Positions 3,872-42,055 of a DNA stretch of 43,618 nt are shown piece by piece (position 1 is the first letter of the stretch; the number at the start of each line of letters is the position of its first letter). The position numbers were made by a program, and so were the translations under genes. Source of the DNA: Lachnospiraceae bacterium. Lineage in GTDB: Bacteria; Bacillota; Clostridia; Lachnospirales; Lachnospiraceae. The DNA lies in the NCBI GenBank assembly GCA_026169045.1, contig JAPFDH010000081.1:1-43618 (forward strand). The letters run 5' to 3'. Below the pieces are notes generated by a model that was not told the DNA's origin, did not search any database, and saw only the letters and a program-made list of their open reading frames with translations.

Positions 3872-3882
3872 GAGAGAAAAAA

Positions 3883-15361: not shown

Positions 15362-15474
15362 AATCATCTTATCCTTCCGAAAATTTTTGAAATTCACTTG
15401 CGTATATAAAATATTTATATTAAAATCGGAATATAGAATAAAAATATATTTATTATGGGGAGAGGGGGATTGTA

Positions 15475-17109: not shown

Positions 17110-17199
17110 AGAAATTATCTGCCGGAAAATGGATGGATTGAGATGGACGAAAACTCCAGCTATAAACCATTCATTTTCCTGTGTTTTTTATCGGATAAA

Positions 17200-17301
17200 T
17201 GTAACAGTTCAGCCCGCGCCATTCGTAAAACCGCACTGCGTGCTTATTATGGCTGTCGCCACTGTTTTACTCATTTACAGCCCTATGGCTGAACTGTTAC
17301 A
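17200..17301. repeat. Perfect 15-bp inverted repeat (TGTAACAGTTCAGCC / GGCTGAACTGTTACA) spaced 72 nt, with a third degenerate copy inside
   Basis: Seen directly in the sequence. Lies between the flotillin gene and the promoter of the NifX-FKBP gene. Confidence 0.6.
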
Positions 17302-17328
17302 GATAAATATGAAATTTACCGGAAAGTC

Positions 17329-17356
17329 TTGACAATACCGAAAAGATGGGGATAAT
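17329..17356 (+). promoter_or_regulatory. Sigma-A-type promoter (TTGACA, 16 nt spacer, GATAAT)
   Basis: Consensus -35 and near-consensus -10 about 70 nt upstream of 17428. Confidence 0.5.
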
Positions 17357-17427
17357 GATAAAAAGAGATCCCAATCATGAAATAAAATGAAAATCTATGG
17401 GAGAAAAAGAAAGAAGAGGTTCAGACA

Positions 17428-18276
17428 ATGAAAATTGCAGTCACATATGATAATGGGAATGTATTTCAGCATTTTGGAAAAACAGAATTTTTTAAGGTAT
17501 ATGATGTGGAGGATAATAAGGTCGTATCCAGTGAAGTAATCAGTTCCAACGGAACCGGACATGGCGCGTTGGCAGGACTTTTGGCTGATCAGTCAGTGGA
17601 TGTGTTAATCTGCGGTGGGATCGGCGGAGGAGCCCAGGCAGCATTGGCAGAAGCAGGCGTGACATTATGCGCCGGAGCCCAGGGAAATACCGATGAAGCG
17701 GTAGAGGCATATCTGAAAGGTGAACTGGTATCCACAGGTGCAAACTGTGATCATCATCACGGAGAAGAACATAGCTGTGGGGATCATGAAGAGGGGCATA
17801 GCTGCGGAGGACATTGTGGCGGTTCCTGTGGCGGCCATGCAGCGATTACCGGACGCAATGTGGGAAAGACATGCCGGACACATTATAAAGGAACATTTAA
17901 TGACGGAACACAGTTCGATTCTTCCTATGACAGAGGAGAACCGTTGGAGTTTATTTGCGGAGCAGGTCAGATGATTAAAGGATTTGATGCCGCAGTGGCT
18001 GATATGGAAGTGGGTCAGATCGTGGATATTCATCTGATGCCGGAAGAAGCCTATGGTATGCCAGATCCCAATGCAATCTTTACGGTTTCCATCGCACAGC
18101 TTCCCGGATCAGAAGAATTGGAAGTGGGACAGCAGGTATATTTGTCAGATCAGACAGGGCGTCCGTTTCCAGTGAAGGTGACAGCCAAAGAGGAAGATAC
18201 GATTACGTTTGATGCAAACCATGAGATGGCAGGAAAGGAACTAAATTTCCGTATTGAACTGGTGGAAGTGAAATAG
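17428..18276 (+). CDS. Fusion of a NifB/NifX-like (dinitrogenase FeMo-cofactor-binding fold) domain, a His/Cys-rich metal-binding linker, and a SlyD-like FKBP-type peptidyl-prolyl isomerase with IF domain
   Basis: N-terminus MKIAVTYDNGNVFQHFGKTEFFKVYD...LICGGIG. Linker CDHHHGEEHSCGDHEEGHSCGGHCGGSCGGH. C-terminus FICGAGQMIKGFDAAVADMEVGQ...DANHEMAGKELNFRIELVEV (SlyD-like). Confidence 0.7.
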   Translation: MKIAVTYDNGNVFQHFGKTEFFKVYDVEDNKVVSSEVISSNGTGHGALAGLLADQSVDVLICGGIGGGAQAALAEAGVTLCAGAQGNTDEAVEAYLKGELVSTGANCDHHHGEEHSCGDHEEGHSCGGHCGGSCGGHAAITGRNVGKTCRTHYKGTFNDGTQFDSSYDRGEPLEFICGAGQMIKGFDAAVADMEVGQIVDIHLMPEEAYGMPDPNAIFTVSIAQLPGSEELEVGQQVYLSDQTGRPFPVKVTAKEEDTITFDANHEMAGKELNFRIELVEVK

Positions 18277-18294
18277 TGTAAGAAAATCCAATTG

Positions 18295-18347
18295 CCTTTA
18301 TACGGACTACTGCAAAACATAAGGAGTAGTCTGTATAAAGGTTTTTT
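18295..18347 (+). terminator. Rho-independent terminator
   Basis: CCTTTATACGGACTACT...AGTAGTCTGTATAAAGG plus TTTTTT. Confidence 0.85.
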
Positions 18348-18492
18348 ATTTATGCGCAGACAACAAGCCGTGGGCGGATGCTTGTATACACATACGGCGA
18401 CTGTCCGCGAACGTGAGAAACTTGCAAAGCGTGTTTCTCATGTTATAAAATAACGGATATAGGAGAAGAATGCAAAAAAGGGGGGTGAAATT

Positions 18493-19248
18493 ATGATATA
18501 CATAACCGGGGATTGTCACGGAGACTTTAAAAGATTTAATACCAGAAATTTTCCAGAGCAAAAAGAAATGACAAAGAAGGATTTTATGATTGTATGCGGA
18601 GATTTTGGCGGTGTGTGGAATAAAAAAGAGGAGAGTAAACAGGAAATAAAGACACTGGATTGGTTGGAAGAAAAGCCATTTACCACATTATTTGTGGATG
18701 GGAATCATGAAAATTTTGACCGTCTCAAAGAATATCCGGAAGAAAGATGGAATGGGGGAAAAGTTCACAGAATTCGTCCATCGGTTTTTCATCTGATGCG
18801 CGGACAAGTATTTCAATTAAATGAAAAAAAGATTTTTGTTTTTGGTGGTGCCAGCAGCCACGATATAGACGGGGGAATCCTGGAAACGGAAGATCCTCAC
18901 TTCAAAAAGAAAAGAAAAGCATTGGATGAGGAAGGAAAATCCTATCGCATCAACCATGTAAGCTGGTGGAAGGAGGAACTGCCTTCAGCAGAGGAAATGG
19001 AGGAAGGACGCTGTAATTTGCAGAGAGTGGATGATAAGGTAGATTTTATTGTGACCCATTGTTGTGCTTCTTCTACCCAGTTATTGCTTGGTCACGGAAA
19101 TTATCAGCCGGATATCCTGACAGCATATCTGGAAGAGATCAGGCAAGCCGTGCAGTTTAAAAAATGGTTCTTTGGCCATTATCATGATAATCAAAATGTC
19201 AGCGCAAAGGAAATACTCTTATATGAGCAAATGATCCGTATTTCTTAG
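18493..19248 (+). CDS. Metallophosphoesterase (Ser/Thr-phosphatase-like, NinI-type)
   Basis: GDCHGD, VCGDFGG, DGNHEN motifs. SD AAGGGGGGTG. Confidence 0.75.
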   Translation: MIYITGDCHGDFKRFNTRNFPEQKEMTKKDFMIVCGDFGGVWNKKEESKQEIKTLDWLEEKPFTTLFVDGNHENFDRLKEYPEERWNGGKVHRIRPSVFHLMRGQVFQLNEKKIFVFGGASSHDIDGGILETEDPHFKKKRKALDEEGKSYRINHVSWWKEELPSAEEMEEGRCNLQRVDDKVDFIVTHCCASSTQLLLGHGNYQPDILTAYLEEIRQAVQFKKWFFGHYHDNQNVSAKEILLYEQMIRIS

Positions 19249-19287
19249 AAGGATTGATAGGAACGAAAGGAGGATGTGAATCACAAT

Positions 19288-20040
19288 ATGGAGCGATATC
19301 AGGATATTAATAGAAAAACCATTGATCGATGGGTGGAAGAAGGATGGGAATGGGGAATTCCAATCTCCCATGAAGAATATGAGGATGCGAAAAATGGAAA
19401 ATGGGAAGTGCTGTTAACACCAACCCGCCATGTACCTCATGAATGGCTTGGAGAATTAAAAGGAAAAAAAGTTCTTGGACTTGCATGTGGCGGTGGACAA
19501 CAAATGCCTATTTTTAGTGCTTTGGGTGCGGAATGTACCGTGTTGGATTATTCATCGAAACAAATCGAATCAGAATTATATGTGGCAAAACGGGAAGGGT
19601 ATCAAATTCATGTGATAGAAGGGGATATGACGAAGAAACTTCCGTTTGAAGAGGAAACGTTTGACATTATTTTTCATCCTGTTTCGAATTGCTATATCAA
19701 AGATGTACAGCATGTTTTTCATGAAGCCTATCGTGTCTTAAAAAAGGGAGGAATTCTTTTATCCGGTCTGGGTAATGAAATTAACTATATTGTAGATAAA
19801 GAGGAAAAAGAAATTATATGGAAAATGCCATTTGATCCATTGGTCGATGATAAAGCAAAACAATTTATGTTGGAAGAGGATTGTGGCATGCAGTTTTCCC
19901 ATAGCATGGAGGAACAAATCGGAGGCCAGTTAAAAGCAGGATTTCTGCTGGCAGATCTGTATGAAGACACCAATGGAAGCGGAAGGCTGCATGAATTAAA
20001 TATTAAAACATATGTGGCGACGAAAGCAATAAAGAGATAA
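19288..20040 (+). CDS. Class I SAM-dependent methyltransferase
   Basis: Motif I VLGLACGGGQQ and post-I acidic residue (VLDYS). Start ATG 19288 chosen over GTG 19276, which abuts the SD. Confidence 0.7.
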   Translation: MERYQDINRKTIDRWVEEGWEWGIPISHEEYEDAKNGKWEVLLTPTRHVPHEWLGELKGKKVLGLACGGGQQMPIFSALGAECTVLDYSSKQIESELYVAKREGYQIHVIEGDMTKKLPFEEETFDIIFHPVSNCYIKDVQHVFHEAYRVLKKGGILLSGLGNEINYIVDKEEKEIIWKMPFDPLVDDKAKQFMLEEDCGMQFSHSMEEQIGGQLKAGFLLADLYEDTNGSGRLHELNIKTYVATKAIKR

Positions 20041-24752: not shown

Positions 24753-25319
24753 TTGGAGGTTACAGTGATAAGATCAAATAGAAAAACAATGGCGATTCAG
24801 GTAAATCCTGATCTTACGGTAACGGTAAGGGCACCCATGCGTGCTTCTAAGAAAGAAATCGAACGAATCTTACAGGAAAAGGAAAGCTGGATTCGAAATG
24901 CGATGAATCAGCTTCGGGAAAAAAAGCGTTTATATGAACTGGAAGACATCAAACCGTTATCTCATACTGAGCTTCAGGAGCTGGCAGAAAAGGCTATGGA
25001 GTATATATCCGGCAGAGTTGCTTATTTTTCAAAGCAAGTGGGAGTAAGTTATGGCAGAATTACGATTCGAAATCAAAAAACCAGGTGGGGGAGTTGCAGT
25101 GGAAAGGGCAATCTTAATTTCAACTGCCTGTTAATGTTGACACCGCCGGAAGTCATTGATTATGTGGTGGTTCATGAGCTTTGCCATCGAAAAGAAATGA
25201 ATCATTCGAAGGCATTTTGGCATGAGGTGGCTAAGATTCTTCCGGATTATAAGAAGCATATGCAATGGTTGAAAAAGGAAGGCGGAAGAATTATGCAACG
25301 GAACCCAAGAAAAGAATAG
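24753..25319 (+). CDS. YgjP/DUF45-family metal-dependent hydrolase (M48-like, HExxH)
   Basis: HELCHRKEMNHSKAFW signature. Family-typical N-terminus including IRSNRKTMAIQV, so the TTG start at 24753 (SD GAAGGGAGG) is preferred. Confidence 0.75.
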   Translation: MEVTVIRSNRKTMAIQVNPDLTVTVRAPMRASKKEIERILQEKESWIRNAMNQLREKKRLYELEDIKPLSHTELQELAEKAMEYISGRVAYFSKQVGVSYGRITIRNQKTRWGSCSGKGNLNFNCLLMLTPPEVIDYVVVHELCHRKEMNHSKAFWHEVAKILPDYKKHMQWLKKEGGRIMQRNPRKE

Positions 25320-25336
25320 AAGTGGGAGGATGAGGA

Positions 25337-25876
25337 ATGGGACATTTTTATTTTGTTCGTCACGGACAGACCGTGTGGAATGTGGAAAATAAGATTTGCG
25401 GAGTGACTGACAGTCCGCTTACGGAACAAGGCCGTGAGCAGGCGCGGGAAACCGGCCGTAAGATGATAGCGGAGGGAGTGGAAGCAGATGAAATTCTCTG
25501 TTCACCGCTTAGTCGGGCAGCAGATACGGCACAGCTGATTTCCGAAATAACAGGTATTCCATATCGGATAGAGCCGCGATTAATCGAGCAAAACTTTGGT
25601 AAATGGGAATCGACACCCCGTGATGGATTGGACTTTAAAAAAGCCAAAGAATTCTTTGCTTACAGTCATGAAGGTGGCGAATCTACACTTCGTCTGGCCC
25701 AGAGGATCTACAATCTGCTGGATGACATAAAGGCAGAAGCTGATAAAAAGACGTATATTCTGGTTGCACATAACGGAATAGCCAGAGTTGTACAGTCGTA
25801 TTTTATGGATATGACCAACGAAGAATATGCAGCATGGGGCGTGAAGAATTGTGAAGTGATTCGGTATGATTTTTAG
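25337..25876 (+). CDS. Histidine phosphatase-family protein (phosphoglycerate mutase-like)
   Basis: N-terminal RHGQTVWN catalytic motif. SD GGGAGGATGAGG. Confidence 0.8.
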   Translation: MGHFYFVRHGQTVWNVENKICGVTDSPLTEQGREQARETGRKMIAEGVEADEILCSPLSRAADTAQLISEITGIPYRIEPRLIEQNFGKWESTPRDGLDFKKAKEFFAYSHEGGESTLRLAQRIYNLLDDIKAEADKKTYILVAHNGIARVVQSYFMDMTNEEYAAWGVKNCEVIRYDF

Positions 25877-25888
25877 GAGGTGAAATCC

Positions 25889-26410
25889 ATGGGTTTTCAT
25901 ATAGAAACCGTACAGGGAGATATTACAAAGGTTGATGATTTGGAAGCCATCGTAAATGCAGCAAATAACAGTCTGCTGGGTGGAGGTGGTGTGGATGGTG
26001 CCATTCACACCGCGGCAGGATCAGAACTGCTGACAGAATGCCGTAGCTTACATGGCTGTAAAACCGGCGAAGCGAAGATTACACATGCTTATCGCCTGCC
26101 GTGCAAATATGTGATTCATACCGTAGGACCAATTTGGCGAGGTGGTAATCATGGAGAGCCGGAACTTTTGGCGAGCGCCTACAGAAATTCTTTGCAGTGT
26201 GCTGTGGACAATGGAATCCGGACATTGGCATTTCCGTCGATCTCTACAGGTGCCTACGGCTATCCGGTAAATCAGGCGGCTGTGATTGCAGTGAAAACTG
26301 TGAGAGAGTTTTGTGCCAAAAATCCGGGGAAGATTGAAATTGTGCGCTTTGTTTTATTCCGTTCAGATATATTGGATGCGTACGATAAAGCTATTATAGA
26401 TATAGCTTAA
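25889..26410 (+). CDS. Macro-domain protein (O-acetyl-ADP-ribose deacetylase / ADP-ribose-binding, YmdB-like)
   Basis: GDITKV...[21 protein letters not shown] macro signature. Start ATG 25889 after AGGAGGTG. Confidence 0.8.
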
Positions 26411-27402: not shown

Positions 27403-28641
27403 ATGGCATATAACGAGCTGGTGAAGAATTTCAAGCGTATACGTGATTATATGAGAGAATTTTATGTGTATGGTTTTAAAAGCAGAGATGAGTTTATCCA
27501 AAAGAGTACGCGATCCTATGATGATGAACGCCGTCGTTTGGAAAGCTGGCTTGGTGATTATATGCAGTTTCGCCAGACTCCGGAAGGAAAAAATATATTT
27601 CTCTCTATTGATAGTCGACTGACGAAGCATAACCCATTGTTCAAAGCTTGGAAAACAAAAAGCTTTACGGATGGAGATATCACACTGCATTTTGTGCTTC
27701 TTGATATCTTGTCAGATCCGAATATCCGTATGACAACAGGAGAGATAACAGAACGCATAGATGAATATCTTTCTCAGTTTACAGAACCCAGAATGTTTGA
27801 TGAATCAACAGTAAGAAAGAAGCTTAAGGAATATGTTTCGCAGGGAATCTTAATTTCAGAGAAAAAAGGAAAGGTATTGTATTATCGAAGGGCAGAGAAT
27901 ATTCCGTTACCGGATAAGGATATGCTGGACTATTTTTCTGAGGTGCTTCCATGTGGTGTGATAGGATCTTTTCTGTTGGATAAGATGGAGCAAAGCAGTA
28001 GCCATTTTGCATTTAAGCATCATTACATAACCGGTACAATGGATACAGAGATTCTCTATTCCGTGTTTCTTGCAATAAGAGAAAAGCGTGGTATGACACT
28101 TGAAATAATCAACAGATACAATCATCGTATTACAGAAAATTATGTGATTCCGATTAAGGTGATGATAAGTGTCCAGAGTGGGCGGCAGTATCTCATGGCA
28201 TACACACCTCGATTTAATAGGATTACGCCGTACAGAACAGATAATATTATTTCTGCTAAACTAGATACGATCAGTGAACGTTTTGATGAGCTGCAAAGTA
28301 CATTTGAGAAGATGCTTCCGAATATGTGGGGAGTAAGTACAGAGGGAAGGACTGGAGCGAGAATCGAGCATGTGGAATTTACGGTTCATTATGCAGATGA
28401 TGAAAAGCATATTCGAAATCGATTGGAACGTGAAAAACGATGCGGTATTGTTGAGCATCTGGATCATAATACCAGCAGATTCTCGGCGGATGTATTTGAT
28501 GCCAGTGAGGTGATTCCATGGATCAGAACTTTTATCTGTAGAATCACAGAGGTCCATTTTTCAAATAAGGAGCTGGAAGAGCAATTTAAAAATGATATCA
28601 ATGATATGTATGCTCTGTATGGCATTGGAGGTGATGAGTAA
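27403..28641 (+). CDS. WYL-domain transcriptional regulator (wHTH plus WYL; PafB/BrxR-like architecture)
   Basis: wHTH-like block LLDILSDPNIRMTTGEITERI...VRKKLKEYVSQGIL. WYL-like block YVIPIKVMISVQSGRQYLMAYTPRFNRITPYRTDNII. Translationally coupled to the next gene (TAA-ATG adjacent). Confidence 0.55.
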   Translation: MAYNELVKNFKRIRDYMREFYVYGFKSRDEFIQKSTRSYDDERRRLESWLGDYMQFRQTPEGKNIFLSIDSRLTKHNPLFKAWKTKSFTDGDITLHFVLLDILSDPNIRMTTGEITERIDEYLSQFTEPRMFDESTVRKKLKEYVSQGILISEKKGKVLYYRRAENIPLPDKDMLDYFSEVLPCGVIGSFLLDKMEQSSSHFAFKHHYITGTMDTEILYSVFLAIREKRGMTLEIINRYNHRITENYVIPIKVMISVQSGRQYLMAYTPRFNRITPYRTDNIISAKLDTISERFDELQSTFEKMLPNMWGVSTEGRTGARIEHVEFTVHYADDEKHIRNRLEREKRCGIVEHLDHNTSRFSADVFDASEVIPWIRTFICRITEVHFSNKELEEQFKNDINDMYALYGIGGDE

Positions 28642-29547
28642 ATGATTTTCAGTGAACTTTATGGTGCGTATTACAATACGGTCGCAGCAATTCTGGCGGA
28701 AGCAGTTACTCATCCGGTTTCAGAAAAAAATATTGGAAATATTATCAAGAAATATGCTTTTTCAGAAAGTATATGGGCAATTTCTGATGCTATTAAGGAA
28801 GAAAGGTGGCAAATAGTAAAGGCAGATGGAACAACACCAATTACCAATAAACCATCTATGCCGCTTACAATTTTACAGAAAAGATGGTTGAAGGCAATTG
28901 GCTGTGATCCGCGATTAAAGCTTTTCGGAACGTTTGATTTTGATTATCCGGATGTAGAACCTCTTTTTCTGCCAACGGATTATATCATATTTGATAAGTA
29001 TGCAGACGGAGACGATTATACAGATGAACGATATATCTCCAATTTTCGGTTAATTCTCGATGCAGTAAGAAATCAGTATCCGTTGAAAATTGAAACCTTA
29101 AATAGAAAAGGAATGCAGATCAGCCAGGTGGTACTGCCGGAATATTTGGAATATTCGGAAAAAGATGATAAATTTAGATTGATCGGTGCTGGAAACCGAT
29201 TTGAAAGTACGATTAATCTTGGGCGTATTATCAGCTGTAAGCGGTATGAAAAATCATTGGAAATCACACAAGGAAAATGTAATTCTGCGCGATCATGCTA
29301 TGTTGTTTTTGAGCTAAAGGATGAAAGAAAGGCTTTGGAACGGGTGCTCCTTCATTTTGCTCATTTTAAGAAAGTTGCCAAACGCATAGAGGAAAATCGA
29401 TATTCCATAACTATTTATTATGATAGAGAAGATGAAACAGAGATCCTAATCCGTATCTTATCGTTTGGTCCGTTGATAAAGGTTACAGCCCCTGTGCATT
29501 TTATAGAATTAATGAAACAGAGATTATTGGAGCAAAAAAAGTTGTGA
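28642..29547 (+). CDS. Second WYL-domain protein (paralogous partner; PafC-like)
   Basis: WYL-like block QISQVVLPEYLEYSEKDDKFRLIGAGNRFESTINLGRIIS. Tight coupling to the upstream regulator. Confidence 0.45.
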   Translation: MIFSELYGAYYNTVAAILAEAVTHPVSEKNIGNIIKKYAFSESIWAISDAIKEERWQIVKADGTTPITNKPSMPLTILQKRWLKAIGCDPRLKLFGTFDFDYPDVEPLFLPTDYIIFDKYADGDDYTDERYISNFRLILDAVRNQYPLKIETLNRKGMQISQVVLPEYLEYSEKDDKFRLIGAGNRFESTINLGRIISCKRYEKSLEITQGKCNSARSCYVVFELKDERKALERVLLHFAHFKKVAKRIEENRYSITIYYDREDETEILIRILSFGPLIKVTAPVHFIELMKQRLLEQKKL

Positions 29548-29571
29548 GCATTCGTGTTCGCAACTTTTTTT
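29541..29571 (+). terminator. Rho-independent terminator after the WYL pair
   Basis: GTTGTGAGC-ATTCGT-GTTCGCAAC plus TTTTTTT. Confidence 0.65.
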
Positions 29572-29627
29572 CCGTGATAAAGGAAGACAGATTTTGTAAA
29601 ATAGCATTGTAATTACTTCTCAAAGGA

Positions 29628-29742
29628 TAAAGATGCTTACAGCAATTTTCAAGATATGTGATTATTTCTAAGAAAGAGTTCCTGATTGGTATTCAGGATA
29701 TTACCGGTGAGATCCTGGGTTTGTATTGAAAAAGCATCTTGT
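29628..29742 (+). ncRNA. Candidate Y-RNA-like structured ncRNA 1 (ends paired by a 9-bp stem)
   Basis: AAGATGCTT (29630-38) pairs with AAGCATCTT (29732-40). Internal hairpins CCTGA...TCAGG and CAGGAT...ATCCTG. ACAGCAA motif just inside the 5' stem. Possible promoter GTGATA-18-TAAAAT upstream. Confidence 0.35.
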
Positions 29743-29744
29743 AA

Positions 29745-29842
29745 TAAAGGCACCTACAGCAAAGTTGAATGAATAAGAGGTTTAAGCAAATGAGAATTAT
29801 CATTTTACGCGGGTTCGAATCCCACTTTAATGGTGCCTTGTG
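29745..29842 (+). ncRNA. Candidate Y-RNA-like (YrlA-type) ncRNA 2 with tRNA-like T-arm
   Basis: AAGGCACC (29747-54) pairs with GGTGCCTT (29832-39). The UA dinucleotide and ACAGCAAAG motif follow the 5' strand. Perfect tRNA T-loop GCGGGTTCGAATCCCAC at 29809-29825. Sits immediately upstream of the Ro60-like gene. Confidence 0.45.
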
Positions 29843-29872
29843 TTTATGTACTATGGAAAAGGAGAGACGCCT

Positions 29873-31363
29873 ATGCTGAATTTATTAAAACAGGAAGCAA
29901 ATATGACATTTACAGAAAATGGTGCTGTTACATACGAAACCAGCGGTTCCGATTGTATGGATTTATTTGCATCCATTGGTGCACTCAGACGAGAAAGCGA
30001 TGATGAAATAATTGCTCGTTTTGTTCGTGCATATACAGAAAATGCAGATATGGCAATGAAGCTTCTTTTCTTTGCCCGGGACATTAGAGGCGGATTAGGT
30101 GAGCGACGTGTGTTTCGTACCATTCTTACATGGCTTGCTGAAAATAAACCGGATTCCGTAAAAAAGAATATGTATTATGTCGCAGAGTATGGTCGCTATG
30201 ATGATTTGTTGGTTCTTCTGGATACGCCCTGTGAGAAAGAAATGCTTTCCATACTTCAAACGCAGTTTGAAAAAGACATGGAAGCGGTTGGAAAGAATGA
30301 AACGGTATCCCTATTGGCAAAGTGGTTGCCGTCAGTAAACGCATCCAATCAACAGACGATTCGAAAGGCAAAAAAAATTGCAAAGGCATTTGGTATGACG
30401 GATGCCGTTTACCGAAAAGCAATTACAGCACTTCGGGCAAGAATACATATTATCGAGAATAATCTTCGCCAAAAGGATTATTCTTTCGATTATGAGAAAC
30501 AGCCGTCCCGGGCGATGTTTAAATATAGGAAAGCATTCTTAAGAAATGATCGGGAAAGATATAGCGAATTTCTTACAAAAGTCAGTTCGGGTGAAGCAAA
30601 ACTCCATACTGACAATATATCTCCATATGAATTGGTTGAGCCATATCTGATAACCGATTGGGATTGGAATTCATCATCTTTTATGCGTGGCATTTCTCCG
30701 GAAGAGAAAGCTGCTTTGAATGCAACATGGAATGCGTTGCCGGATTTCGGAAGCAAAGAGGATGCGATTGCAATTATTGATACATCAGGGTCCATGTATT
30801 GTGACAGCAAGCCAATTCCGGCCGCTATTGCATTATCATTGGGATTATATTTTGCAGAACACAATAAAGGAAGGTTTAGAAATCATTTTATTGAGTTTTC
30901 AGCAAGGCCACAGTTGCTTGAAATAAAAGGTGAAACTTTTGCAGACCGTCTTCGTTACATAACAACATTTAATGAGATGGCAGATACAAATCTTGAAGCG
31001 GTATTTGATCTGATTCTGAACGCAGCCGTGAAGAATAGAATCCGTCAGGATGAAATGCCTGCTAAACTAATTATTCTTTCTGATATGGAGTTTAATTCCT
31101 GTGTGAAAAATGCTTCAGAAAGCAATTTTAATAGTGCAAAGAAAAAGTACACTGCGAAAGGGTATAAGCTTCCGGAAATCATTTTTTGGAACGTTGCCAG
31201 CAGAAACAGACAACAGCCGGTAACCATGAATGAGCAAGGTGTTGTACTGGTTTCTGGTGTGACACCGAGAATTTTTGAGATGGTTGCCGGAGGTAAGCTT
31301 TCTCCATATGCGTTTATGTTGGAAGTATTGGAAAGTGAGCGCTATGCTAAGATAGCAGCATAG
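29873..31363 (+). CDS. Ro60-like protein: TROVE/DUF2828-like N-terminal region plus C-terminal von Willebrand A domain with intact MIDAS
   Basis: MIDAS DTSGSM (IAIIDTSGSMY) with downstream T and LIILSD. N-terminus NGAVTYETSGSDCMDLFASIGAL, FARDIRGGLGERR. Start ATG 29873 after AAAAGGAGAG. Confidence 0.55.
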   Translation: MLNLLKQEANMTFTENGAVTYETSGSDCMDLFASIGALRRESDDEIIARFVRAYTENADMAMKLLFFARDIRGGLGERRVFRTILTWLAENKPDSVKKNMYYVAEYGRYDDLLVLLDTPCEKEMLSILQTQFEKDMEAVGKNETVSLLAKWLPSVNASNQQTIRKAKKIAKAFGMTDAVYRKAITALRARIHIIENNLRQKDYSFDYEKQPSRAMFKYRKAFLRNDRERYSEFLTKVSSGEAKLHTDNISPYELVEPYLITDWDWNSSSFMRGISPEEKAALNATWNALPDFGSKEDAIAIIDTSGSMYCDSKPIPAAIALSLGLYFAEHNKGRFRNHFIEFSARPQLLEIKGETFADRLRYITTFNEMADTNLEAVFDLILNAAVKNRIRQDEMPAKLIILSDMEFNSCVKNASESNFNSAKKKYTAKGYKLPEIIFWNVASRNRQQPVTMNEQGVVLVSGVTPRIFEMVAGGKLSPYAFMLEVLESERYAKIAA

Positions 31364-31403
31364 TGCTCCTAAAAAGGAGCCTCAAAAGGGGAAGGGTGAA
31401 ACG

Positions 31404-32681
31404 ATGATAGAGATAAAAGGAAAGAGGAATACTGCAATCTGTTATACAAACGTAATAGATGATGGAGCAATCGAACAAATCCGAAGAATGTGTGATTATA
31501 ATTTGACAGAAGGAAGTCGGGTAAGAATTATGCCGGATGTACATTCTGGAAAGGGGTGTACCATCGGTACTACTATGACGGTCGTGGATAAGGTTTGCCC
31601 CAATATTGTAGGAGTTGATATAGGATGTGGTATGTATACGGTTAAGCTGGAGGACAAAAAGCTTGACTTTGAACGACTCGATGAAGTATGTCATTACATT
31701 CCGTCTGGAATGAATGTCTGGGACGGCAGAATGGAACGATTTGATCTGACAGCTCTTCGCTGTTATCGGTCTTTGAAAGACACACGAAGATTGGAACGTT
31801 CATTGGGAACGTTAGGCGGAGGAAATCATTTTATTGAGGTGGATAAGGACTCGGATGGAAACTTATACCTTATCATCCATTCCGGAAGCAGAAATCTGGG
31901 AAAACAGGTAGCAGAAATTTACCAACAGCTTGCGATCGATCTTCATACTGGTAAGGAGGATTATTTTTCCAGACGTGATGCAATTATCTGTTCTTTTAAA
32001 GCAGAAGGACGACGATCTGAGATACAAAATGCATTGAAAGAGCTGGAAAAAGAGTATACGTCACAAGTACCGGATGTCCCGGAAGATCTTTGCTGGTTAT
32101 ATGGTTCCTTTTTAGAGGATTATCTTCATGATGTGGGAATTTGTCAGAGATTTGCCAGAAGAAACAGAGAACGCATGGCAGAAATTATAGTAGAACGAAC
32201 CGGAATGAGGGATGCAGAGGCGTTTCATACGGTTCATAACTATATTGATACAAAGGAAAGGATTCTTCGAAAAGGTGCTATTGCAGCCCATATCGGAGAA
32301 AAGGTATTGATTCCAATTAATATGCGTGATGGTTCTATTCTTGCTGTAGGAAAAGGAAATCCTGAATGGAATTATTCCGCGCCCCATGGAGCCGGACGAG
32401 TTATGTCAAGATCAATGGCTAAACAAACCATAAATATGGATACATATCGGGAATCGATGAAAGGTATCTATACAACATCAGTAAATGAAAGTACTATTGA
32501 TGAATCTCCAATGGTTTATAAATCATTGGAAGATATTATTGATGTTATTGGCGAATCGGTAGAAATCATTGATATGATCAAGCCCATATACAATTTCAAA
32601 GCGGCAGATGATGATTCTACATGGAGGAAAAGAAAACGGTTGACTGGGGAGAACGAAATGGGGCCGTTGCAAAATAGATGA
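31404..32681 (+). CDS. rtcB: RtcB-family RNA 3'-phosphate/2',3'-cyclic phosphate ligase
   Basis: RtcB metal/GTP-site motifs GGGNHFIEV, PDVHSGKGC and SAPHGAGR. SD GGGGAAGGGTG. Confidence 0.85.
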   Translation: MIEIKGKRNTAICYTNVIDDGAIEQIRRMCDYNLTEGSRVRIMPDVHSGKGCTIGTTMTVVDKVCPNIVGVDIGCGMYTVKLEDKKLDFERLDEVCHYIPSGMNVWDGRMERFDLTALRCYRSLKDTRRLERSLGTLGGGNHFIEVDKDSDGNLYLIIHSGSRNLGKQVAEIYQQLAIDLHTGKEDYFSRRDAIICSFKAEGRRSEIQNALKELEKEYTSQVPDVPEDLCWLYGSFLEDYLHDVGICQRFARRNRERMAEIIVERTGMRDAEAFHTVHNYIDTKERILRKGAIAAHIGEKVLIPINMRDGSILAVGKGNPEWNYSAPHGAGRVMSRSMAKQTINMDTYRESMKGIYTTSVNESTIDESPMVYKSLEDIIDVIGESVEIIDMIKPIYNFKAADDDSTWRKRKRLTGENEMGPLQNR

Positions 32682-32730
32682 GTAATCATCTATGGAGCAA
32701 CGGCCCCATCGGCATCTTCCCTTTTTTCAA

Positions 32731-35336: not shown

Positions 35337-36296
35337 ATGTGGGGGGGGAGTATTACGAAGATTGAAGATTTAGTGATAAAAATGCCAACAGAGGAAATCG
35401 ATGAAAAGGATTGGAATCTTGAAGAATGGAAACAAAAGTATCCGATGGATTACTATAAAGCTTTGCGAATTTTGTCAGAAGCGAGTAACGGAGTTGTTGC
35501 TACAGAGATTTTTAAAGCTATATACCAAATAACACGTTTGCATGTACCTGATGTTTTGTTCAAATATTATTCATTGTCAAATGATGAGGAATTAAATAAG
35601 AAAAAATTTCAAACCTTAAGTGAGGGAAAACTTTTTATGTCAGAGATTAAGGATTTTAACGATCCATTTGATGGTAAAAGTTTTTTCTACAATCCAAAAA
35701 GATTGGAAGATATCGATAGGTTACGTGTTCATAAAGGAAGATTGATAGATGATTTTACTGTGTTTATAAGGGGAACATGTTTTACAGCTAATGGAGTTCA
35801 GTCAATGCCGATGTGGGCTCATTATGCCAACAATCATAAAGGTTTTTGTGTTTCTTATGATGTAAAAGAAAATTTGGGACTCAAAAGTAATATATTCCCG
35901 ATACAATATACAGAAGAAAGGCTAGACGTAACTGCATTGATGCGTAAGCATGCAGAATTAATTTGCGATAAAATTGATGAAAATATACGACGAGGAGAAA
36001 AGATAACGCAATATGATGATTTGACAATAATTTATATGGCATTATTACTATATAATGTTAAGCATATATCGTGGAATTATGAGAATGAATTCAGATATTT
36101 TGTGCCATCAAATGCAAGTGGGATTCCATATGCTAAAGCGATTCCTAGAGCAATTTACATAGGAATGAATTGCGAGGAAAGACACAAAAAAGCACTAGAA
36201 GATATAGCAGACTATTGGGATGTTCCTTTGTATCAAATGGGAATGGATGAATGTTCAGAAAAATATGAATTAGTTGCAACTAGAATGCGGAGCTGA
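35337..36296 (+). CDS. DUF2971-family protein
   Basis: LFKYYSL...LSEGKLFMSEIKDFNDPFDG matches the DUF2971 core (KY.SL...fNDPfE). Start codon uncertain (G-rich SD GGGGGGGGAG with no nearby ATG; possibly GTG 35376 or ATG 35382). Confidence 0.55.
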   Translation: MWGGSITKIEDLVIKMPTEEIDEKDWNLEEWKQKYPMDYYKALRILSEASNGVVATEIFKAIYQITRLHVPDVLFKYYSLSNDEELNKKKFQTLSEGKLFMSEIKDFNDPFDGKSFFYNPKRLEDIDRLRVHKGRLIDDFTVFIRGTCFTANGVQSMPMWAHYANNHKGFCVSYDVKENLGLKSNIFPIQYTEERLDVTALMRKHAELICDKIDENIRRGEKITQYDDLTIIYMALLLYNVKHISWNYENEFRYFVPSNASGIPYAKAIPRAIYIGMNCEERHKKALEDIADYWDVPLYQMGMDECSEKYELVATRMRS

Positions 36297-36761
36297 TAGC
36301 GTAGAATGTAACATAAAAAATACGGTACGTGATGCAAGTTTAGAAGCTACATTATACGAGCATCAGAAAAAGATTAAGTGCATCGAAAAAATATACTTGT
36401 AATCATTTCTAAAGACATACTATATACAGGAAGCGTATTATTATATGAAATAGAAGAAGCCCTTGATGTTTAGGAAATGTGTTTTCCTATTGTATATCCG
36501 GAATCTAGTTTTAGGTGATCATCTTTGGCATTATCTGGTTGATGTGAATGAACAGGCACTAGCAAGATTGAATATGCTCGTGAAACTGATACAGGAAGTA
36601 GAGTGTATGATGGAAATTAAAGGTCATTGGTAATAGATTTGAAGGATGAAAAATATTTGTAACAGGCTGGAAGAAATTGTGATAATATTTTTTACACAAG
36701 GGAATGAAAGTAATAAACGATTTATGGGGCTACAAAACTACGTTAAAAGAAATAGAGGAAA

Positions 36762-38213
36762 ATGATGATCAAAATTATAAAATGCAAGCAATGGCGGGCA
36801 CGAAAGAATACAATAGTACTTCATTATGACAACTGGGATGATTATGGATATAAGACAACATATCGTATTAATTATTATGATAAAGATGGAAATTCTGTTT
36901 GGGAAAGTAGTATTCAAATTTATTGTACAAGATTGGATGAAGACGGTTCCGGAGGAGGCAAGGTAGATGAATATTTACCAAGTGAAATTGCAAAATTGGA
37001 TGATTCATTCTGTTCACTTGGTTGTGACATGAATTTTTATTCGGGATTAAAAAAAGCTTTGCCAAAAGATTATTTGGATATTTTAAACAGATTAAATGAT
37101 TTGGCCTATAATGAAAAACGATGGAATCAATTCAAGAAATATACCGGAGTCCAAAAGTCGCTATTAAGATCTAGTAGTTCAATTAAAGCAAGAGAAGAAG
37201 CATTCGCTATATTAGAAAATAATTTTATTAAAGAAAAAAATCTTTCTTTTTCGTATAGAACTCGTATTCCATATAGTGATATCATAGTTTCATTGAATTT
37301 TTTGTTTAATAAAAAGGCGGATCTTCCACATAGAATCAACGCAATTGTGGGAAAAAACGGAACGGGTAAAACACATATTCTTAATAATTTAGCAGAAGAT
37401 TTGAGCGGTTTCAAACTTGAAGAATTTGATGATAATGCATTTGAAAGAGGGAAAAGGCCATCTTTTGATAAAGTGATTTCTGTATCTTACAGTGCATTCG
37501 ATCCATTTAAGAAATTGAAAGGCCAAAATTCATTGAATAGTTATGTTTATTGTGGAATACAATCAGAAAAAGGCACATTGAAACTTAACGAGATACAAGA
37601 TAATTTTTGGAAGTCTTTAGAAACTATAAAGAAAAGGGATAGATACGAACAGTGGAAAAGAATAATTACAGAGTTATTTGCTGAAGAGAATTATAATATA
37701 ACTTCACAAATTGATGAATCTAGAATGAGAGATATTAATTGGAGCTCTGGACAAAATGTATTAATATCGTCTATGACAGAGGTTGTTGCAAAAATTGATA
37801 AGGAATCAATTATTCTATTTGATGAACCAGAACTACATCTTCATCCAAATGCTATAGCGAATGTTATGCGAATGTTTAATAAAATTCTTGAAGAATTTAA
37901 TTCATACGCAATTATAGCGACACACTCGCCGATTATTTTGCAAGAGATTCCTTCTAATAATATTATTGTATTAGAAAGAATTGATAACCAGCCCTTTGTC
38001 AGGAGACCTGAAATCGAGTGCTTCGGCGAAAACATTTCGCTCATTACTAGAGATATTTTTGATGTAACTAGTAAGGAAAGTTATTATCAAGCCTTTTTTT
38101 TAAAAATGAAGGAAACTGGAAAAACAAAAGAACAAATAGAAAAATTGTTTGAGTATAATTTGGGATTAAATGCACTTATTTATCTGGAAACATTATACAA
38201 GCAGGAGAAATGA
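36762..38213 (+). CDS. ptuA: Septu PtuA-like ABC-type (AAA_15/21) ATPase
   Basis: Walker A IVGKNGTGKTH. Walker B/D-loop ILFDEPELHLHPN (DEPExHLHP signature of OLD/PtuA/GajA-class ATPases). Final TGA overlaps the ATG of the next gene. Confidence 0.55.
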   Translation: MMIKIIKCKQWRARKNTIVLHYDNWDDYGYKTTYRINYYDKDGNSVWESSIQIYCTRLDEDGSGGGKVDEYLPSEIAKLDDSFCSLGCDMNFYSGLKKALPKDYLDILNRLNDLAYNEKRWNQFKKYTGVQKSLLRSSSSIKAREEAFAILENNFIKEKNLSFSYRTRIPYSDIIVSLNFLFNKKADLPHRINAIVGKNGTGKTHILNNLAEDLSGFKLEEFDDNAFERGKRPSFDKVISVSYSAFDPFKKLKGQNSLNSYVYCGIQSEKGTLKLNEIQDNFWKSLETIKKRDRYEQWKRIITELFAEENYNITSQIDESRMRDINWSSGQNVLISSMTEVVAKIDKESIILFDEPELHLHPNAIANVMRMFNKILEEFNSYAIIATHSPIILQEIPSNNIIVLERIDNQPFVRRPEIECFGENISLITRDIFDVTSKESYYQAFFLKMKETGKTKEQIEKLFEYNLGLNALIYLETLYKQEK

Positions 38214-38951
38214 ATGATTAATTACATAGAAAACACAGAAATAAATGATGAAGGTGTATTCAAAGACATAATAAAATATAAGCACGAACCTGGAAAAACA
38301 AAATTAAAAGATTGTAAAAAAGAAATTTTTGAAGATTATTTAATTTATAAACAAAATTCCTGTGCCCTTCAGAAAGTTATACCTGATATTCGTATACCTG
38401 ATGAATCTAAAAAAGAACTGATTAAAACATATAACAGTAATCCAAGTGCTTTGCAAAAATCTAAGTTGATGATAAAGAAAAATTTATCTAACATATTGAG
38501 AGCAAAATGTCCCTATTGTTTAATTTCTGCGCATAGCACATTTGATCACTATTTGGACAAGTCTAAGTATCCAGAATATGCATTGTTTTCAAGCAATCTT
38601 ATTCCATCATGTGCGGAGTGCAATTCTTTGAAAAGTGATTTTTTATGTGATAGTAAAGGCAATAGATTATTTATTAATTTTATTTTTGATGAGCTTCCTG
38701 CTTATCCGTTTTTAAAGTATATTCTTTCTATAGAAGGAGAGAAAATTGTACTTAAGAAAGTATATCTAGATTTTGATGATAATGAACCTAAAAAACAAAT
38801 AATCAAAAATCATTTTAAAAAATTAAAGTTAATTCCTCGACTTGAAGACCAATTTGATGTTGCTATATCCACGATTATAGAAGAATTTCATGAATATAAC
38901 TATAGTACTCGAGAGGTAAAGGAAGTCTTGACAAAAAAAATGAGGGCTTAG
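38214..38951 (+). CDS. ptuB: Septu PtuB-like HNH endonuclease
   Basis: His-Me finger / HNH: CPYCLISAHSTFDHYLDKSKYPEYALFSSNLIPSCAECNSLKSD (CxxC...DH...N...CxxCN). Confidence 0.55.
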   Translation: MINYIENTEINDEGVFKDIIKYKHEPGKTKLKDCKKEIFEDYLIYKQNSCALQKVIPDIRIPDESKKELIKTYNSNPSALQKSKLMIKKNLSNILRAKCPYCLISAHSTFDHYLDKSKYPEYALFSSNLIPSCAECNSLKSDFLCDSKGNRLFINFIFDELPAYPFLKYILSIEGEKIVLKKVYLDFDDNEPKKQIIKNHFKKLKLIPRLEDQFDVAISTIIEEFHEYNYSTREVKEVLTKKMRA

Positions 38952-39354: not shown

Positions 39355-40521
39355 ATGGCATCAATCGTTCAACGTAACAAAAGCTTTAGCGTAGTTTACA
39401 ATATTTACGATGGAGACAAGAAAAAACAAAAGTGGGAGACCTATCATTCTTATAAAGAGGCTCTACATCGAAAAGAGCAAGTAGAGATCATTTATCAGAA
39501 GAAACAGCTGAAATATCGTTCAGGAACTCTGGCACAGTTTTTGAATGAATATGTGGAACTATATGGGCACGTTCATTGGGCTTGCTCCACCTATAGCAGC
39601 AATACAGCGCTGATTCGGAATTATATTATTCCGTTCTTTGGAACCATGCAACTTCATGAGTTTAGTCCCAAAGTGATTGCAGTAATCTATAGTCAACTAC
39701 AAAGAAATCCGAAAATCACGCCACAGCTTATGAATAATATTCATAAACTATTACATAGTGCATTTGAACAAGCTGTACTATGGGAATATCTAGATTACAA
39801 TCCTTTCAAAAAAGCCAATCTTCCGAAAATATATTCGCAGGGGATTGCAATGCTGTCCTTGGATCAGATTAGAATACTATTGCAAAATTGCACGGAGCCG
39901 ACGCTAACGTTAGCTGTTCACTTAGCTTTTTCGGGTTCTTTACGAAAGGGAGAAATTTTAGCTCTTACTTGGATTGACATAGACTTCGATAAGGGGACGG
40001 TGTCGGTCAGCAAATCCTTGAAGCGTATCCGAAAGGATGCTGTCCAGGTGCTAAACGGTAAAGACATTCTTTATCAATTTCCGGCTATATTTGATGAAGG
40101 GCGTACCGTTGTTGTATTGAAACGGCCAAAAACTCATGCCAGTGTCCGGACGGTGTATTTACCGGAATATGTAATGAATCTGCTTTGGAACGTAAAGAAA
40201 GAACAAAGAGCTTTAAAAAGAGGAATACCGGAGCTTGTTTTACGTTATGGAAATGGAAGACCTCTTCAAGAAGAAACGCTTCCTCGTTTGTTGGAAAAAC
40301 AGCTGCTAGCGCTTGGGCTTCCCAAAGTTACTTTCCATAGCTTGCGTCACAGTAGTATAACATATAAATTAATACTTACTGGTGGAAACATCAAAGCAGT
40401 TCAAGGTGATTCTGGTCACGCACAGGCGGAGATGATCACAGAACGTTATGGTCATATTATTGATTCTTGCCGCAAGCAGTGTTCAAAAGATTTTGAAGAA
40501 GACTTTTATAAGAGCCTGTAA
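39355..40521 (+). CDS. Tyrosine-type site-specific recombinase/integrase with AP2-like N-terminal arm-binding domain
   Basis: N-terminus KSFSVVYNIYDGDKKKQKWETYHSYKEA (Arm-DNA-binding-like). C-terminal catalytic residues HSLRHSSIT...ERYGHI (R..H..R..Y). SD AAGGAGG. Confidence 0.8.
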   Translation: MASIVQRNKSFSVVYNIYDGDKKKQKWETYHSYKEALHRKEQVEIIYQKKQLKYRSGTLAQFLNEYVELYGHVHWACSTYSSNTALIRNYIIPFFGTMQLHEFSPKVIAVIYSQLQRNPKITPQLMNNIHKLLHSAFEQAVLWEYLDYNPFKKANLPKIYSQGIAMLSLDQIRILLQNCTEPTLTLAVHLAFSGSLRKGEILALTWIDIDFDKGTVSVSKSLKRIRKDAVQVLNGKDILYQFPAIFDEGRTVVVLKRPKTHASVRTVYLPEYVMNLLWNVKKEQRALKRGIPELVLRYGNGRPLQEETLPRLLEKQLLALGLPKVTFHSLRHSSITYKLILTGGNIKAVQGDSGHAQAEMITERYGHIIDSCRKQCSKDFEEDFYKSL

Positions 40522-41951: not shown

Positions 41952-42055
41952 ACGAAAAAAGTACACGATGGATTCAGAGCCGGGTTTATGGTATGATAGA
42001 TGCGTATCATAGCTTGGCTCTTTTCTATGGCAGGCAGATAGAAAGGAGAAATGGA

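Follow-up and report, generated by a model that had tools for sequence, protein, structure and literature searches.

A conserved cassette of paired WYL regulators, Y-like RNAs, a Ro60-like DUF2828 protein and RtcB in gut bacteria

Identification and conservation of the cassette

We analyzed a 43,618-nt stretch of DNA from a Lachnospiraceae bacterium (GenBank assembly GCA_026169045.1, contig JAPFDH010000081.1); this whole stretch is called the window below, and all coordinates refer to it. On its plus strand, the window carries a cassette of two genes for WYL-domain regulators, two Y-like RNAs, a gene for a Ro60-like protein of the DUF2828 family, and a gene for the RNA ligase RtcB. This cassette is real and widely conserved in gut bacteria, and its two RNAs belong to a conserved family that accompanies DUF2828 genes on the same strand in both bacteria and phages. 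We interpret it as a WYL-gated operon for RNA repair or RNA surveillance, in which a Ro-like ribonucleoprotein (RNP) would work with RtcB on damaged tRNA-like substrates, and we give this interpretation a probability of about 65%.

An initial annotation had proposed an RNA-repair-type cassette of five elements at this place. All five were confirmed on the plus strand, in place or shifted by a few bases at most. This strand carries two abutting open reading frames (ORFs), a hairpin with a T-run, a non-coding stretch of 290 nt, a 496-aa ORF, and a 425-aa ORF, in this order. The overall reading is supported as well, including on those points named in advance as able to overturn it that were checked, since the 496-aa protein is a DUF2828 protein with a Ro60 fold and both upstream proteins are WYL regulators.

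We compared 80 bacterial loci, each from a different species and picked by similarity to the DUF2828 protein; counts from this set describe this clade only, and some neighboring genes are hidden by contig ends. The loci span Lachnospiraceae, Oscillospiraceae, Anaerovoracaceae/Mogibacterium, Christensenellaceae, and Synergistaceae. The usual gene order is WYL1-WYL2-RNAs-DUF2828-RtcB, with variants in which RtcB lies ahead of the DUF2828 gene or the WYL pair is divergent. WYL genes are found in 48 of the 80 species-level loci, which makes this the commonest arrangement and contradicts the earlier description of the regulator set as unusual. RtcB lies beside the DUF2828 gene in 54 of the 80, mostly in the order seen in the window. 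Clustered at 90% identity, homologues of the DUF2828 protein form more than 7900 clusters, and those of the two WYL proteins more than 6100 and about 6300.

The setting of the cassette, which had been described as an AT-rich island, is ordinary: its GC content is 0.36-0.41, against about 0.40 for the window, and the AT-rich stretch lies further downstream, at 33-39 kb. No flanking gene travels with the cassette when the macro domain, histidine phosphatase, YgjP, and Septu-like genes of the window are compared across related loci. Because these flanks are not conserved, we regard the neighboring defense and mobile-element island as a local accident and dropped it as evidence.

The Y-like RNAs form a family with a common module

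RNA 1 (29629-29744, +) has a degenerate tRNA-like apical module and was found by motif match, by the covariance model (CM) R1, and by nhmmer; RNA 2 (29746-29843, +) has a tRNA-like module and was found by CM R1 and by an alignment of 21 sequences. Both open with AAAGRYRYNNACAGCAA, which matches twice in the window against 0.06 matches expected. Each is closed by a helix (29630-29638/29732-29740 in RNA 1 and 29747-29754/29832-29839 in RNA 2), with ACAGCAA following its 5' strand at 29639-29645 and 29756-29762, respectively. RNA 2 also has a T-arm, GCGGGTTCGAATCCCAC (29809-29825), which matches the T-arm of transfer-messenger RNA and tRNA in Rfam at permissive E-values. The proposal of a hairpin terminator followed by two stem-closed RNAs agrees well with these observations: a hairpin is present at 29540-29571, both helices were located, and the comparative evidence is strong.

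The module common to bacterial and phage units is AAAGRCRC-NN-ACAGCAA ... GYGYCTTG, where AAAGRCRC and GYGYCTTG form an 8-bp closing helix, ACAGCAA is invariant and single-stranded, and the apical module is variable and often tRNA-like. This family is absent from Rfam 15. At the gathering threshold, Rfam finds nothing in the window for the RNAs, and at permissive E-values it gives only chance matches and the T-arm in the RNA region. Neither the window nor any of 10 related loci has a match to the Y RNA and YrlA models (RF00019, RF02553) at the gathering threshold, and relaxing the limit to E<=10 or E<=1 gives none in the RNA regions either.

With nhmmer, full-length homologues of RNA 1 are found in loci L013 and L011 (E 3e-8), upstream of DUF2828 genes of other species. 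In the alignment of RNA 2 homologues (21 sequences), made with MAFFT and not fitted to the structure, the closing helix and ACAGCAA are followed by a short acceptor-like helix and then by D, variable anticodon-like, and T arms, the T arm reading GCGGGTTCGAATCCCGC, and the 3' strand of the homologues ends in CTTG. RNAalifold predicts 19 pairs in this alignment, 10 of which show compensatory changes. A hand-written structure consisting of a cloverleaf plus the closing helix pairs in 90% of the cells, compared with 37-49% when it is slid, and 16 of its 25 pairs are changed on both sides.

CM R1, whose E-values are rough, scores RNA 2 at 86 bits and RNA 1 at 28.7 bits (E 0.007). At E<=0.1, it gives 220 matches on the 80 bacterial loci. 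Every match shares the strand of the DUF2828 gene, and nearly every one lies no more than about 1.5 kb upstream of it; the matches are 50-148 nt long, often with several in tandem. A CM alignment of 150 sequences, itself fitted to the model, shows 97% pairing in the closing helix, against 35-50% in slid controls, with changes on both sides in 8/8 of its pairs. Roughly half of the units bear tRNA-like arms, and the others have short apical hairpins. An independent scan by regular expression plus pairing finds units upstream on the same strand in 77 of the 80 bacterial loci and in all of the 80 viral loci described below (80/80), with 1-8 units per locus. Upstream, there are about 1.5 units per kb, compared with about 0.05 per kb elsewhere, a difference of about thirty-fold.

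When scored as tRNA with Rfam, the inner modules of several orthologues exceed the gathering threshold. Nevertheless, their anticodons are inconsistent, CCA is absent, and the acceptor stems are weak, which sets them apart from tRNA genes. The anticodon-like loops are 7 nt long and of several identities, e.g., CAT, GAA, and TCT. The arms follow each other as D arm, anticodon-like arm, and T arm, not in the permuted order T arm, acceptor, D arm of YrlA. A helix pairs the two ends and covaries; the conserved motif is ACAGCAA and not GNCGAAN0-1G/GGUCCGA (compare PMC4201824). The label of Y-like RNA agrees with the conservation and covariation of the units and with the tRNA-like modules of the orthologues.

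These elements could conceivably be cis-acting parts of the leader (processing or stability signals, or attenuators), or decayed tRNA genes without function, instead of partners acting in trans. Indeed, they lie in the 5' untranslated part of the operon, a terminator scan made no call between RNA 2 and the Ro-like ORF, and the window copies are degenerate. Moreover, single-sequence folding of RNA 1 and RNA 2 is no better than that of shuffled sequences (z -1.8 and -1.2, respectively), and the structural claim thus rests on comparative data. However, the closing helix and ACAGCAA are kept from Clostridia to mycobacteriophages while the apical parts vary, copy number ranges from 1 to 8, and the units of mycobacteriophage Silverleaf are located downstream of the gene, which fits poorly with a leader function. 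Besides, RNAs of just this stem-closed type, encoded next to the protein gene, are known ligands of Ro60-type proteins (PMC12135203, PMC4201824). We consider a purely cis-acting or vestigial nature very improbable.

The DUF2828 protein resembles Ro60 in its predicted fold

The gene following the RNAs (29873-31363, +) has its best start at ATG 29873, with the Shine-Dalgarno sequence GGAGAG upstream. It encodes a protein of 496 aa, and not 497 aa as first annotated, with a DUF2828 helical ring followed by a DUF7788 von Willebrand factor A (vWA) domain; the vWA domain with an intact MIDAS (metal ion-dependent adhesion site), which had also been claimed, is indeed present. Pfam assigns DUF2828 (PF11443) with 5.5e-34 and 118.1 bits (cut-off 29) and DUF7788 (PF25043) with 1e-44 and 152.9 bits (cut-off 27.1). 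The MIDAS residues D303, S305, S307, T372, and D404 are invariant in 31 orthologues.

An AlphaFold2 model of the protein has moderate confidence, with a predicted local distance difference test (pLDDT) score of 75.6 and a predicted template modeling (pTM) score of 0.68. In a Foldseek search against the PDB with this model, the 13 best matches are all Ro60 proteins, aligned over the whole length with E-values of 2e-6 to 2e-4 and template modeling (TM) scores of 0.33-0.54. They include Ro60 of Thermus phage phiLo, which is the best match, D. radiodurans Rsr, and the Xenopus and human Ro60 proteins. The arrangement of a helical-repeat ring followed by a C-terminal vWA domain is that of Ro60. Searches of NCBIfam and PADLOC gave no link of the protein to Ro60. 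Regarding the N-terminal region, which had been likened to either TROVE or DUF2828, the second assignment stands by Pfam, with a Ro60 fold by Foldseek, while TROVE was not matched.

RtcB and its absent partners

The last gene of the cassette (31404-32681, +) encodes a protein of 425 aa, which the Pfam RtcB model matches with 3.4e-58 and 198 bits, in accordance with its annotation as an RtcB ligase joining 3'-phosphate and 5'-OH RNA ends. The motifs MPDVHSGKG, GVDIGCG, GGGNHFIE, HSGSRNLG, and HGAGR, involved in metal binding and guanylylation, are all intact in an alignment with P. horikoshii RtcB, and the enzyme is accordingly predicted to be catalytically competent. It stays below the NCBIfam cut-offs for both the E. 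coli-type RtcB (144.8 vs 407 bits) and the PrfH-linked RtcB2 (111.9 vs 271.8 bits). Its identity to the RtcB found near the DUF2828 gene of Listeria phage LMLPA3 is 43%, and by sequence the RtcBs beside DUF2828 genes form a shared subfamily. We found no RtcR, RtcA, or archease among the window ORFs of at least 110 aa scanned with Pfam, as had been noted initially. The operon may end at an 11-bp GC-rich hairpin across the stop codon of RtcB, with a T-run later (32660-32727, +); this feature was read from the sequence only, and the terminator scan made no call there.

The Ro-like RNP might instead serve mainly in RNA degradation or quality control together with an exoribonuclease, as in the D. 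radiodurans Rsr-Yrn1-PNPase complex (RYPER), RtcB being only a frequent neighbor. D. radiodurans Rsr-Yrn1 and phage phiLo Ro60-Yrl both assemble with PNPase (PMC4201824, PMC12135203), and there is no RtcB near the gene in 26 of the 80 bacterial loci or in nearly all phage loci. Against this stand the adjacent RtcB of the other 54 bacterial loci and of Herelleviridae phages, and the shared RtcB subfamily, with its 43% identity between window and Listeria phage. We judge a role mainly in degradation unlikely, if less so than a cis-acting role of the RNAs.

The WYL pair and the conserved promoter element

WYL1 (412 aa, 27403-28641, +; PADLOC WYL 4.6e-9) consists of a conserved N-terminal region of about 95 aa, a winged helix-turn-helix (wHTH) domain at about 100-180, a WYL domain at about 215-290, and a C-terminal extension. 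WYL2 (301 aa, 28642-29547, +; PADLOC WYL 3.1e-6) is a paralogue of PafB/PafC type, with a helical N-domain, WYL, and WCX. The genes had been described as translationally coupled, and indeed the TAA stop codon of WYL1 is immediately followed by the ATG of WYL2, with GGAGGTG inside the end of the WYL1 ORF.

Neither window protein reaches the Pfam WYL model, so orthologues, PADLOC, PDB profiles, and a structure model were required to assign them. Pfam WYL matches 30 of 32 WYL1 orthologues, and among 26 WYL2 orthologues WCX is matched in 19 and WYL in 4; some clusters of WYL1 homologues carry the name 'WYL domain-containing protein'. A WYL1 profile finds PafC (7p5x, E 0.0045), PafBC (6sj9), and wHTH domains of ArsR/SmtB type in the PDB, as expected from the suggestion that WYL1 has a wHTH and resembles PafBC. 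The AlphaFold2 model of WYL2 (pLDDT 79) has PafBC, DriD, BrxR, CapW, and Cas13d-WYL1 as its top 31 Foldseek matches, and hhalign relates WYL2 to the window WYL1 with E 0.0014. Both proteins thus have the HTH-WYL-WCX architecture of PafBC/DriD-type regulators, and form a PafB/PafC-like pair, confirming the WYL pair first proposed.

Residues 1-95 of WYL1 (window 27403-27690), ahead of the wHTH, are strongly conserved. This N-terminal region has no family match and is absent from PafB, PafC, and DriD.

Directly after WYL2 comes an A-tract, hairpin, and T7 (29534-29571, +), found by folding, whose hairpin and T-run (29540-29571) fold at -12.9 kcal/mol (z -3.7). The left arm of the hairpin, AAAAAGTTGCGnAC, occurs in many related loci but not in all; a hairpin with this arm is a likely intrinsic terminator of the WYL gene pair. 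We rejected the hairpin as a terminator only, because its right arm, which belongs to the promoter element described next, and the following TTTTTTTCCGTGA are conserved even in loci where the left arm is missing, with a fixed 16-nt spacing to the -10 region.

The region is also a promoter and operator candidate (29556-29602, +), found by conservation and promoter scan. It contains GTTCGCAACTTTTTTTCCGTGA (29556-29577), a -35-like GTGATA (29574-29579), and the -10 sequence TAAAAT (29597-29602), with a spacer of 17 nt between these two hexamers; a consensus promoter scan independently picks 29574-29602. Across loci, the element reads GTTCGCARCTTTTTTTCCRTGA-16 nt-TAnnnT, the 16-nt spacing being found in 48 of 63 sites, and GTTCGCA(A/G)CTTTTTTTCC(G/A)TGA directly after WYL2 is nearly invariant between distant loci. 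The element is single in the 43.6-kb window even at three mismatches (0 expected), while in the bacterial loci there are 63 occurrences in 56 of the 80, all 63 on the plus strand. Of the loci with WYL genes, 48/48 carry it, as do 8/32 of those without, several of these 8 being contigs that end just upstream. This distribution makes it a likely WYL operator, i.e., the predicted binding site of the WYL pair. Eight loci carry the element upstream of WYL1 too, which suggests autoregulation; in the window it is absent upstream of WYL1 with three mismatches allowed. In most loci, the ACAGCA of the first RNA comes about 40 nt past the TGA of the element, placing the 5' end of this RNA at about the expected transcription start; in the window, a leader of about 20 nt precedes RNA 1.

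According to a published prediction, WYL transcription factors recognize cyclic-ended RNA and regulate pathways of RNA repair (PMC9503650). Alternatively, the WYL pair might sense single-stranded DNA (ssDNA), placing the cassette in a response to DNA damage or prophage induction with RNA repair as a downstream consequence. The closest structures to WYL2, PafBC and DriD, are ssDNA-activated activators solved on RNA polymerase, the best sequence matches of WYL1 are PafC and PafBC, and the Salmonella rtc operon is also induced in the SOS response via prophage genes (PMC9879122). On the other hand, the same fold binds single-stranded RNA in the Cas13d accessory protein WYL1 (6oaw, among the Foldseek matches of WYL2), cyclic-ended RNA is the ligand predicted for WYL domains in RNA-repair contexts (PMC9503650), and a ligand cannot be read from sequence. 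We regard ssDNA sensing as possible, and the less probable of the two.

Phage versions of the system

Homologues of the DUF2828 protein, at about 40% identity, are encoded on 430 IMG/VR contigs, and phage units of the ACAGCAA RNA family sit immediately upstream of the gene, sharing its strand. RtcB and WYL genes are absent within 5 kb in the viral loci, except for three contigs resembling the bacterial cassette. The 80 viral loci hold 397 tRNAs. The homologue is also encoded by 711 isolated phage genomes, including Felixounavirus, Herelleviridae of Listeria, Enterococcus, and Staphylococcus, and mycobacteriophages, where it is annotated as 'Ro-like RNA binding protein'. RtcB near the DUF2828 gene is also found in Herelleviridae phages, and in Felixounavirus a tRNA array directly follows the DUF2828-family gene. 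The phage homologues have no Pfam TROVE match either.

The protein of Mycobacterium phage Silverleaf has the DUF2828+DUF7788 architecture and is 37.5% identical to the window protein; after its gene come three stem+ACAGCAA(UUAC) units, and one of these overlaps an Rfam YrlA match, below threshold, with the permuted T-acceptor-D order. This mycobacteriophage locus is the only one in which YrlA was matched, below threshold. In Listeria phage LMLPA3, three units are placed upstream of the gene and RtcB follows 1.3 kb downstream; the locus also holds tRNAs and a ROOL-like RNA. Stem+ACAGCAAUUAC units adjoin the gene in both phages. The pairing of protein and RNA is kept from bacteria to distant phages, and thus throughout the clade; what varies is the apical module and the set of accessory genes.

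Two further features were observed in these comparisons. The ROOL-like match of LMLPA3 (L162, 1458-2009) is just below the gathering score, with 89 bits and E 5e-17, and a ROOL RNA (310 bits) also lies by tRNA arrays, the DUF2828 gene, and RtcB in a Mogibacterium metagenome-assembled genome (L032, 3677-4251), so that the association recurs. In Mogibacterium/Anaerovoracaceae loci L021, L024, L025, L026, and L032 (about 700-5900), the Y-like RNAs and the DUF2828 gene are directly preceded by arrays of 13-29 ordinary tRNA genes. RtcB is upstream of the tRNA array in L021, L025, L032, and the L027-type order, and was not found in the stretches fetched for L024 and L026. These Mogibacterium-type loci have neither WYL genes nor the promoter element.

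The tRNA arrays of phages and Mogibacterium-type loci favor tRNA as the object of the system, with which a decoy or counter-defense role is compatible. The cassette might then be a conflict module and not a housekeeping one, where nucleases that cleave tRNA (anticodon nucleases, toxins, colicins, or phage and host effectors) would meet the tRNA-like RNAs as decoys or sacrificial sensors, and the Ro-like protein and RtcB would hold and reseal these RNAs or the real tRNAs; bacteria would use it against toxins, and phages against host defenses that target tRNA. This is consistent with the tRNA-rich surroundings of the phage versions, with the 13-29 tRNA genes upstream in Mogibacterium-type loci, with the several identities of the 7-nt anticodon-like loops (CAT, GAA, TCT), and with 1-8 units per locus in a system whose protein 711 isolated phage genomes encode. 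A Septu-like pair and a candidate system, PDC-S31, also lie 2.6-6 kb downstream in the window. Nevertheless, these defense neighbors count for little, as the flanks are not conserved. Neither the Ro-like protein nor this RtcB is covered by a PADLOC model, and the anticodon-like loops differ between orthologues, while the window copies are degenerate. A conflict role overlaps with the RNA-repair operon that we prefer and does not exclude it; we advance it only tentatively.

A proposed mechanism

Under the reading of a WYL-gated RNA-repair or RNA-surveillance operon, WYL1 and WYL2 would form a heterodimer that binds GTTCGCAACTTTTTTTCCGTGA, overlapping the -35 region, and a single-stranded nucleic-acid signal in the WYL domains would switch transcription on. 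This signal would most plausibly be RNA fragments with 2',3'-cyclic phosphate ends, or possibly ssDNA. A single transcript from about 29609 would span RNA 1, RNA 2, the Ro-like gene, and rtcB, and the RNAs would be cut from its 5' part, like YrlA and YrlB in Salmonella. The AAAGRCRC/ACAGCAA module may dock the RNAs on the Ro-like ring, while the tRNA-like modules may tether the RNP to tRNA-handling factors or mimic its substrates. Cleaved tRNAs or similar RNAs would then be held and resealed by RtcB.

Several observations weigh against this reading. Besides the poor single-sequence folding of the two RNAs, neither ARAGORN nor the Rfam tRNA model finds a tRNA in the window, where the tRNA-like parts are degenerate, and part of the comparative support comes from the fitted CM alignment and rough E-values noted above. 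Pfam TROVE (PF05731) has no match to the 496-aa protein at E<=0.1, and a profile of its 31 orthologues does not find Ro60 among PDB sequences, so that the relationship to Ro60 is structural only, as suggested by a model of moderate confidence. To our knowledge, all characterized full-length WYL activators of this type (PafBC and DriD) sense ssDNA and not RNA. The promoter element could serve a special sigma factor instead of the WYL pair. The 26 bacterial loci without RtcB in the stretch fetched indicate that the RNP is not strictly dependent on RtcB. Lastly, RNA binding by the Ro-like protein is proposed by analogy, from the co-location of the genes, and ACAGCAA differs from the GNCGAA of the YrlA bound by Rsr.

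A broader hypothesis, which we offer as speculation with the odds rather against it, is that the DUF2828-clade proteins of gut Firmicutes, Synergistetes, and their phages define a distinct and very abundant class of RNP. Up to eight RNAs would share a common handle and present different tRNA mimics as adaptors or decoys, steering repair by RtcB, or nuclease evasion, toward particular tRNAs; in bacteria, a WYL heterodimer that senses broken RNA would turn the system on via the dedicated promoter element.

Other features of the window

Just upstream of the cassette, and not conserved with it, lie genes for a YgjP-like metallopeptidase, a histidine phosphatase, and a macro-domain protein (24753-26410); macro domains process ADP-ribose derivatives made in tRNA splicing. 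Downstream, the Septu-like pair consists of an ATPase (36762-38213; PADLOC PDC-M01A 4.9e-145, PtuA 1.4e-79) and an HNH protein (38214-38951; PDC-M01B 9e-48, PtuB), preceded by a DUF2971 protein that matches the candidate PDC-S31 (2.4e-34). This region (35337-38951) has a GC content of 0.28-0.33. Past these defense genes, a mobile-element region is marked by two tyrosine integrases (39355-40521 and 41993-43297), the latter having a DNA-binding domain of Tn916 type.

At 14621-20040, a 544-aa Band-7/SPFH protein (15475-17109) is encoded between calcineurin-like phosphoesterases (14621-15361 and 18493-19248), and a methyltransferase (19276-20040) completes the cluster. Burroughs and Aravind are said, in work of 2016, to have linked SPFH/Band-7 modules to RNA repair and a tRNA-like RNA, and this could be a second cluster of RNA-repair type in the window. 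Just downstream of the Band-7 gene, a structured element (17200-17301) has a perfect 15-bp closing helix, TGTAACAGTTCAGCC...GGCTGAACTGTTACA, and folds at -37.6 kcal/mol (z -4.4), with no Rfam match. Silverleaf also encodes a band-7-like membrane protein (L161, 1017-1895), 1.1 kb upstream of its Ro-like protein, which echoes the Band-7 gene of the window.

Comparison with known systems

The kind of system, i.e., a Ro60-type protein with Y RNAs, RtcB, and a ligand-sensing regulator, is already known. Annotations already reflect the Ro-like nature of the phage DUF2828 proteins, and it has been predicted, in broad outline, that WYL proteins control RNA repair. We found no description in the accessible literature of the ACAGCAA-type RNA family (non-permuted tRNA mimics in tandem arrays), of its consistent pairing with the DUF2828 clade, or of the paired WYL regulators with a dedicated promoter element, although the 2016 work of Burroughs and Aravind may cover some of this; a full-text search on DUF2828 returned unrelated papers only.

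Ro60 and its Y RNAs are of medical importance as autoantigens in lupus and Sjogren syndrome, with mimicry by commensal Ro60 having been proposed, and bacterial Ro60 biology rests on a handful of species with canonical TROVE proteins. The clade of the present cassette is far more common in gut bacteria and phages, with thousands of clusters at 90% identity, and has its own RNA handle, ACAGCAA, and multi-copy tRNA-mimic RNAs with no Rfam entry. The WYL pair and the 22-bp promoter element make a defined and testable circuit, which could settle whether WYL domains sense damaged RNA. The phage versions beside tRNA arrays, RtcB, and ROOL RNA tie the system to the contest between phage and host over tRNA integrity.

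The precedent for the cassette is the Salmonella rsr-yrlBA-rtcBA operon (PMC7790460, PMC4201824), and the analogy first drawn with it holds in gene content and order, with the WYL pair in the place of RtcR. Both systems combine, in one orientation, a Ro60-type ring protein and RtcB with two Y RNAs, one or both of them bearing a tRNA-like module; a ligand-sensing regulator is encoded alongside, and the RNAs are embedded in the operon transcript. In Salmonella Typhimurium, this regulator is RtcR, a CARF-AAA+/sigma-54 protein, whereas here it is the WYL pair with a sigma-70-type promoter element. Furthermore, RtcA is missing here, the RNAs are located ahead of the Ro-like gene, and the protein belongs to the DUF2828/DUF7788 clade without a Pfam TROVE match. 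The RNA motif is ACAGCAA instead of GNCGAA, and the tRNA-like module has the natural D-anticodon-T order, closed at the acceptor end, instead of the permuted T-acceptor-D order of YrlA.

Among phages, Ro60 of phiLo has the same fold, is the best structural match, and binds two Yrl RNAs (Yrl1 and Yrl2) encoded upstream of its gene (PMC12135203); two Y-like RNA genes beside the protein gene are thus common to both, while the role proposed in phiLo is hijacking of the host PNPase. Silverleaf shares a DUF2828+DUF7788 protein flanked by stem+ACAGCAA units, one of them scoring as YrlA. Compared with the window, the phage loci have no WYL pair, no promoter element, and usually no RtcB, and are set among tRNA genes. 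The RYPER of D. radiodurans also combines a Ro60-type ring with a Y RNA in the natural 5'-D...T-3' order (PMC4201824), but has another RNA motif and no association with RtcB or WYL proteins.

Regarding the regulators, PafBC of mycobacteria and DriD of Caulobacter share the HTH-WYL-WCX architecture, and PafBC also consists of two paralogues from adjacent genes. The predicted site by or over the -35 region is likewise as for these activators, which replace -35 recognition. Nevertheless, PafBC and DriD target DNA-damage genes with ssDNA as ligand, whereas the putative target here is an RNA-repair operon, WYL1 has its extra conserved N-terminal region of about 95 aa, and the predicted operator sequence is unrelated to the sites of PafBC and DriD.

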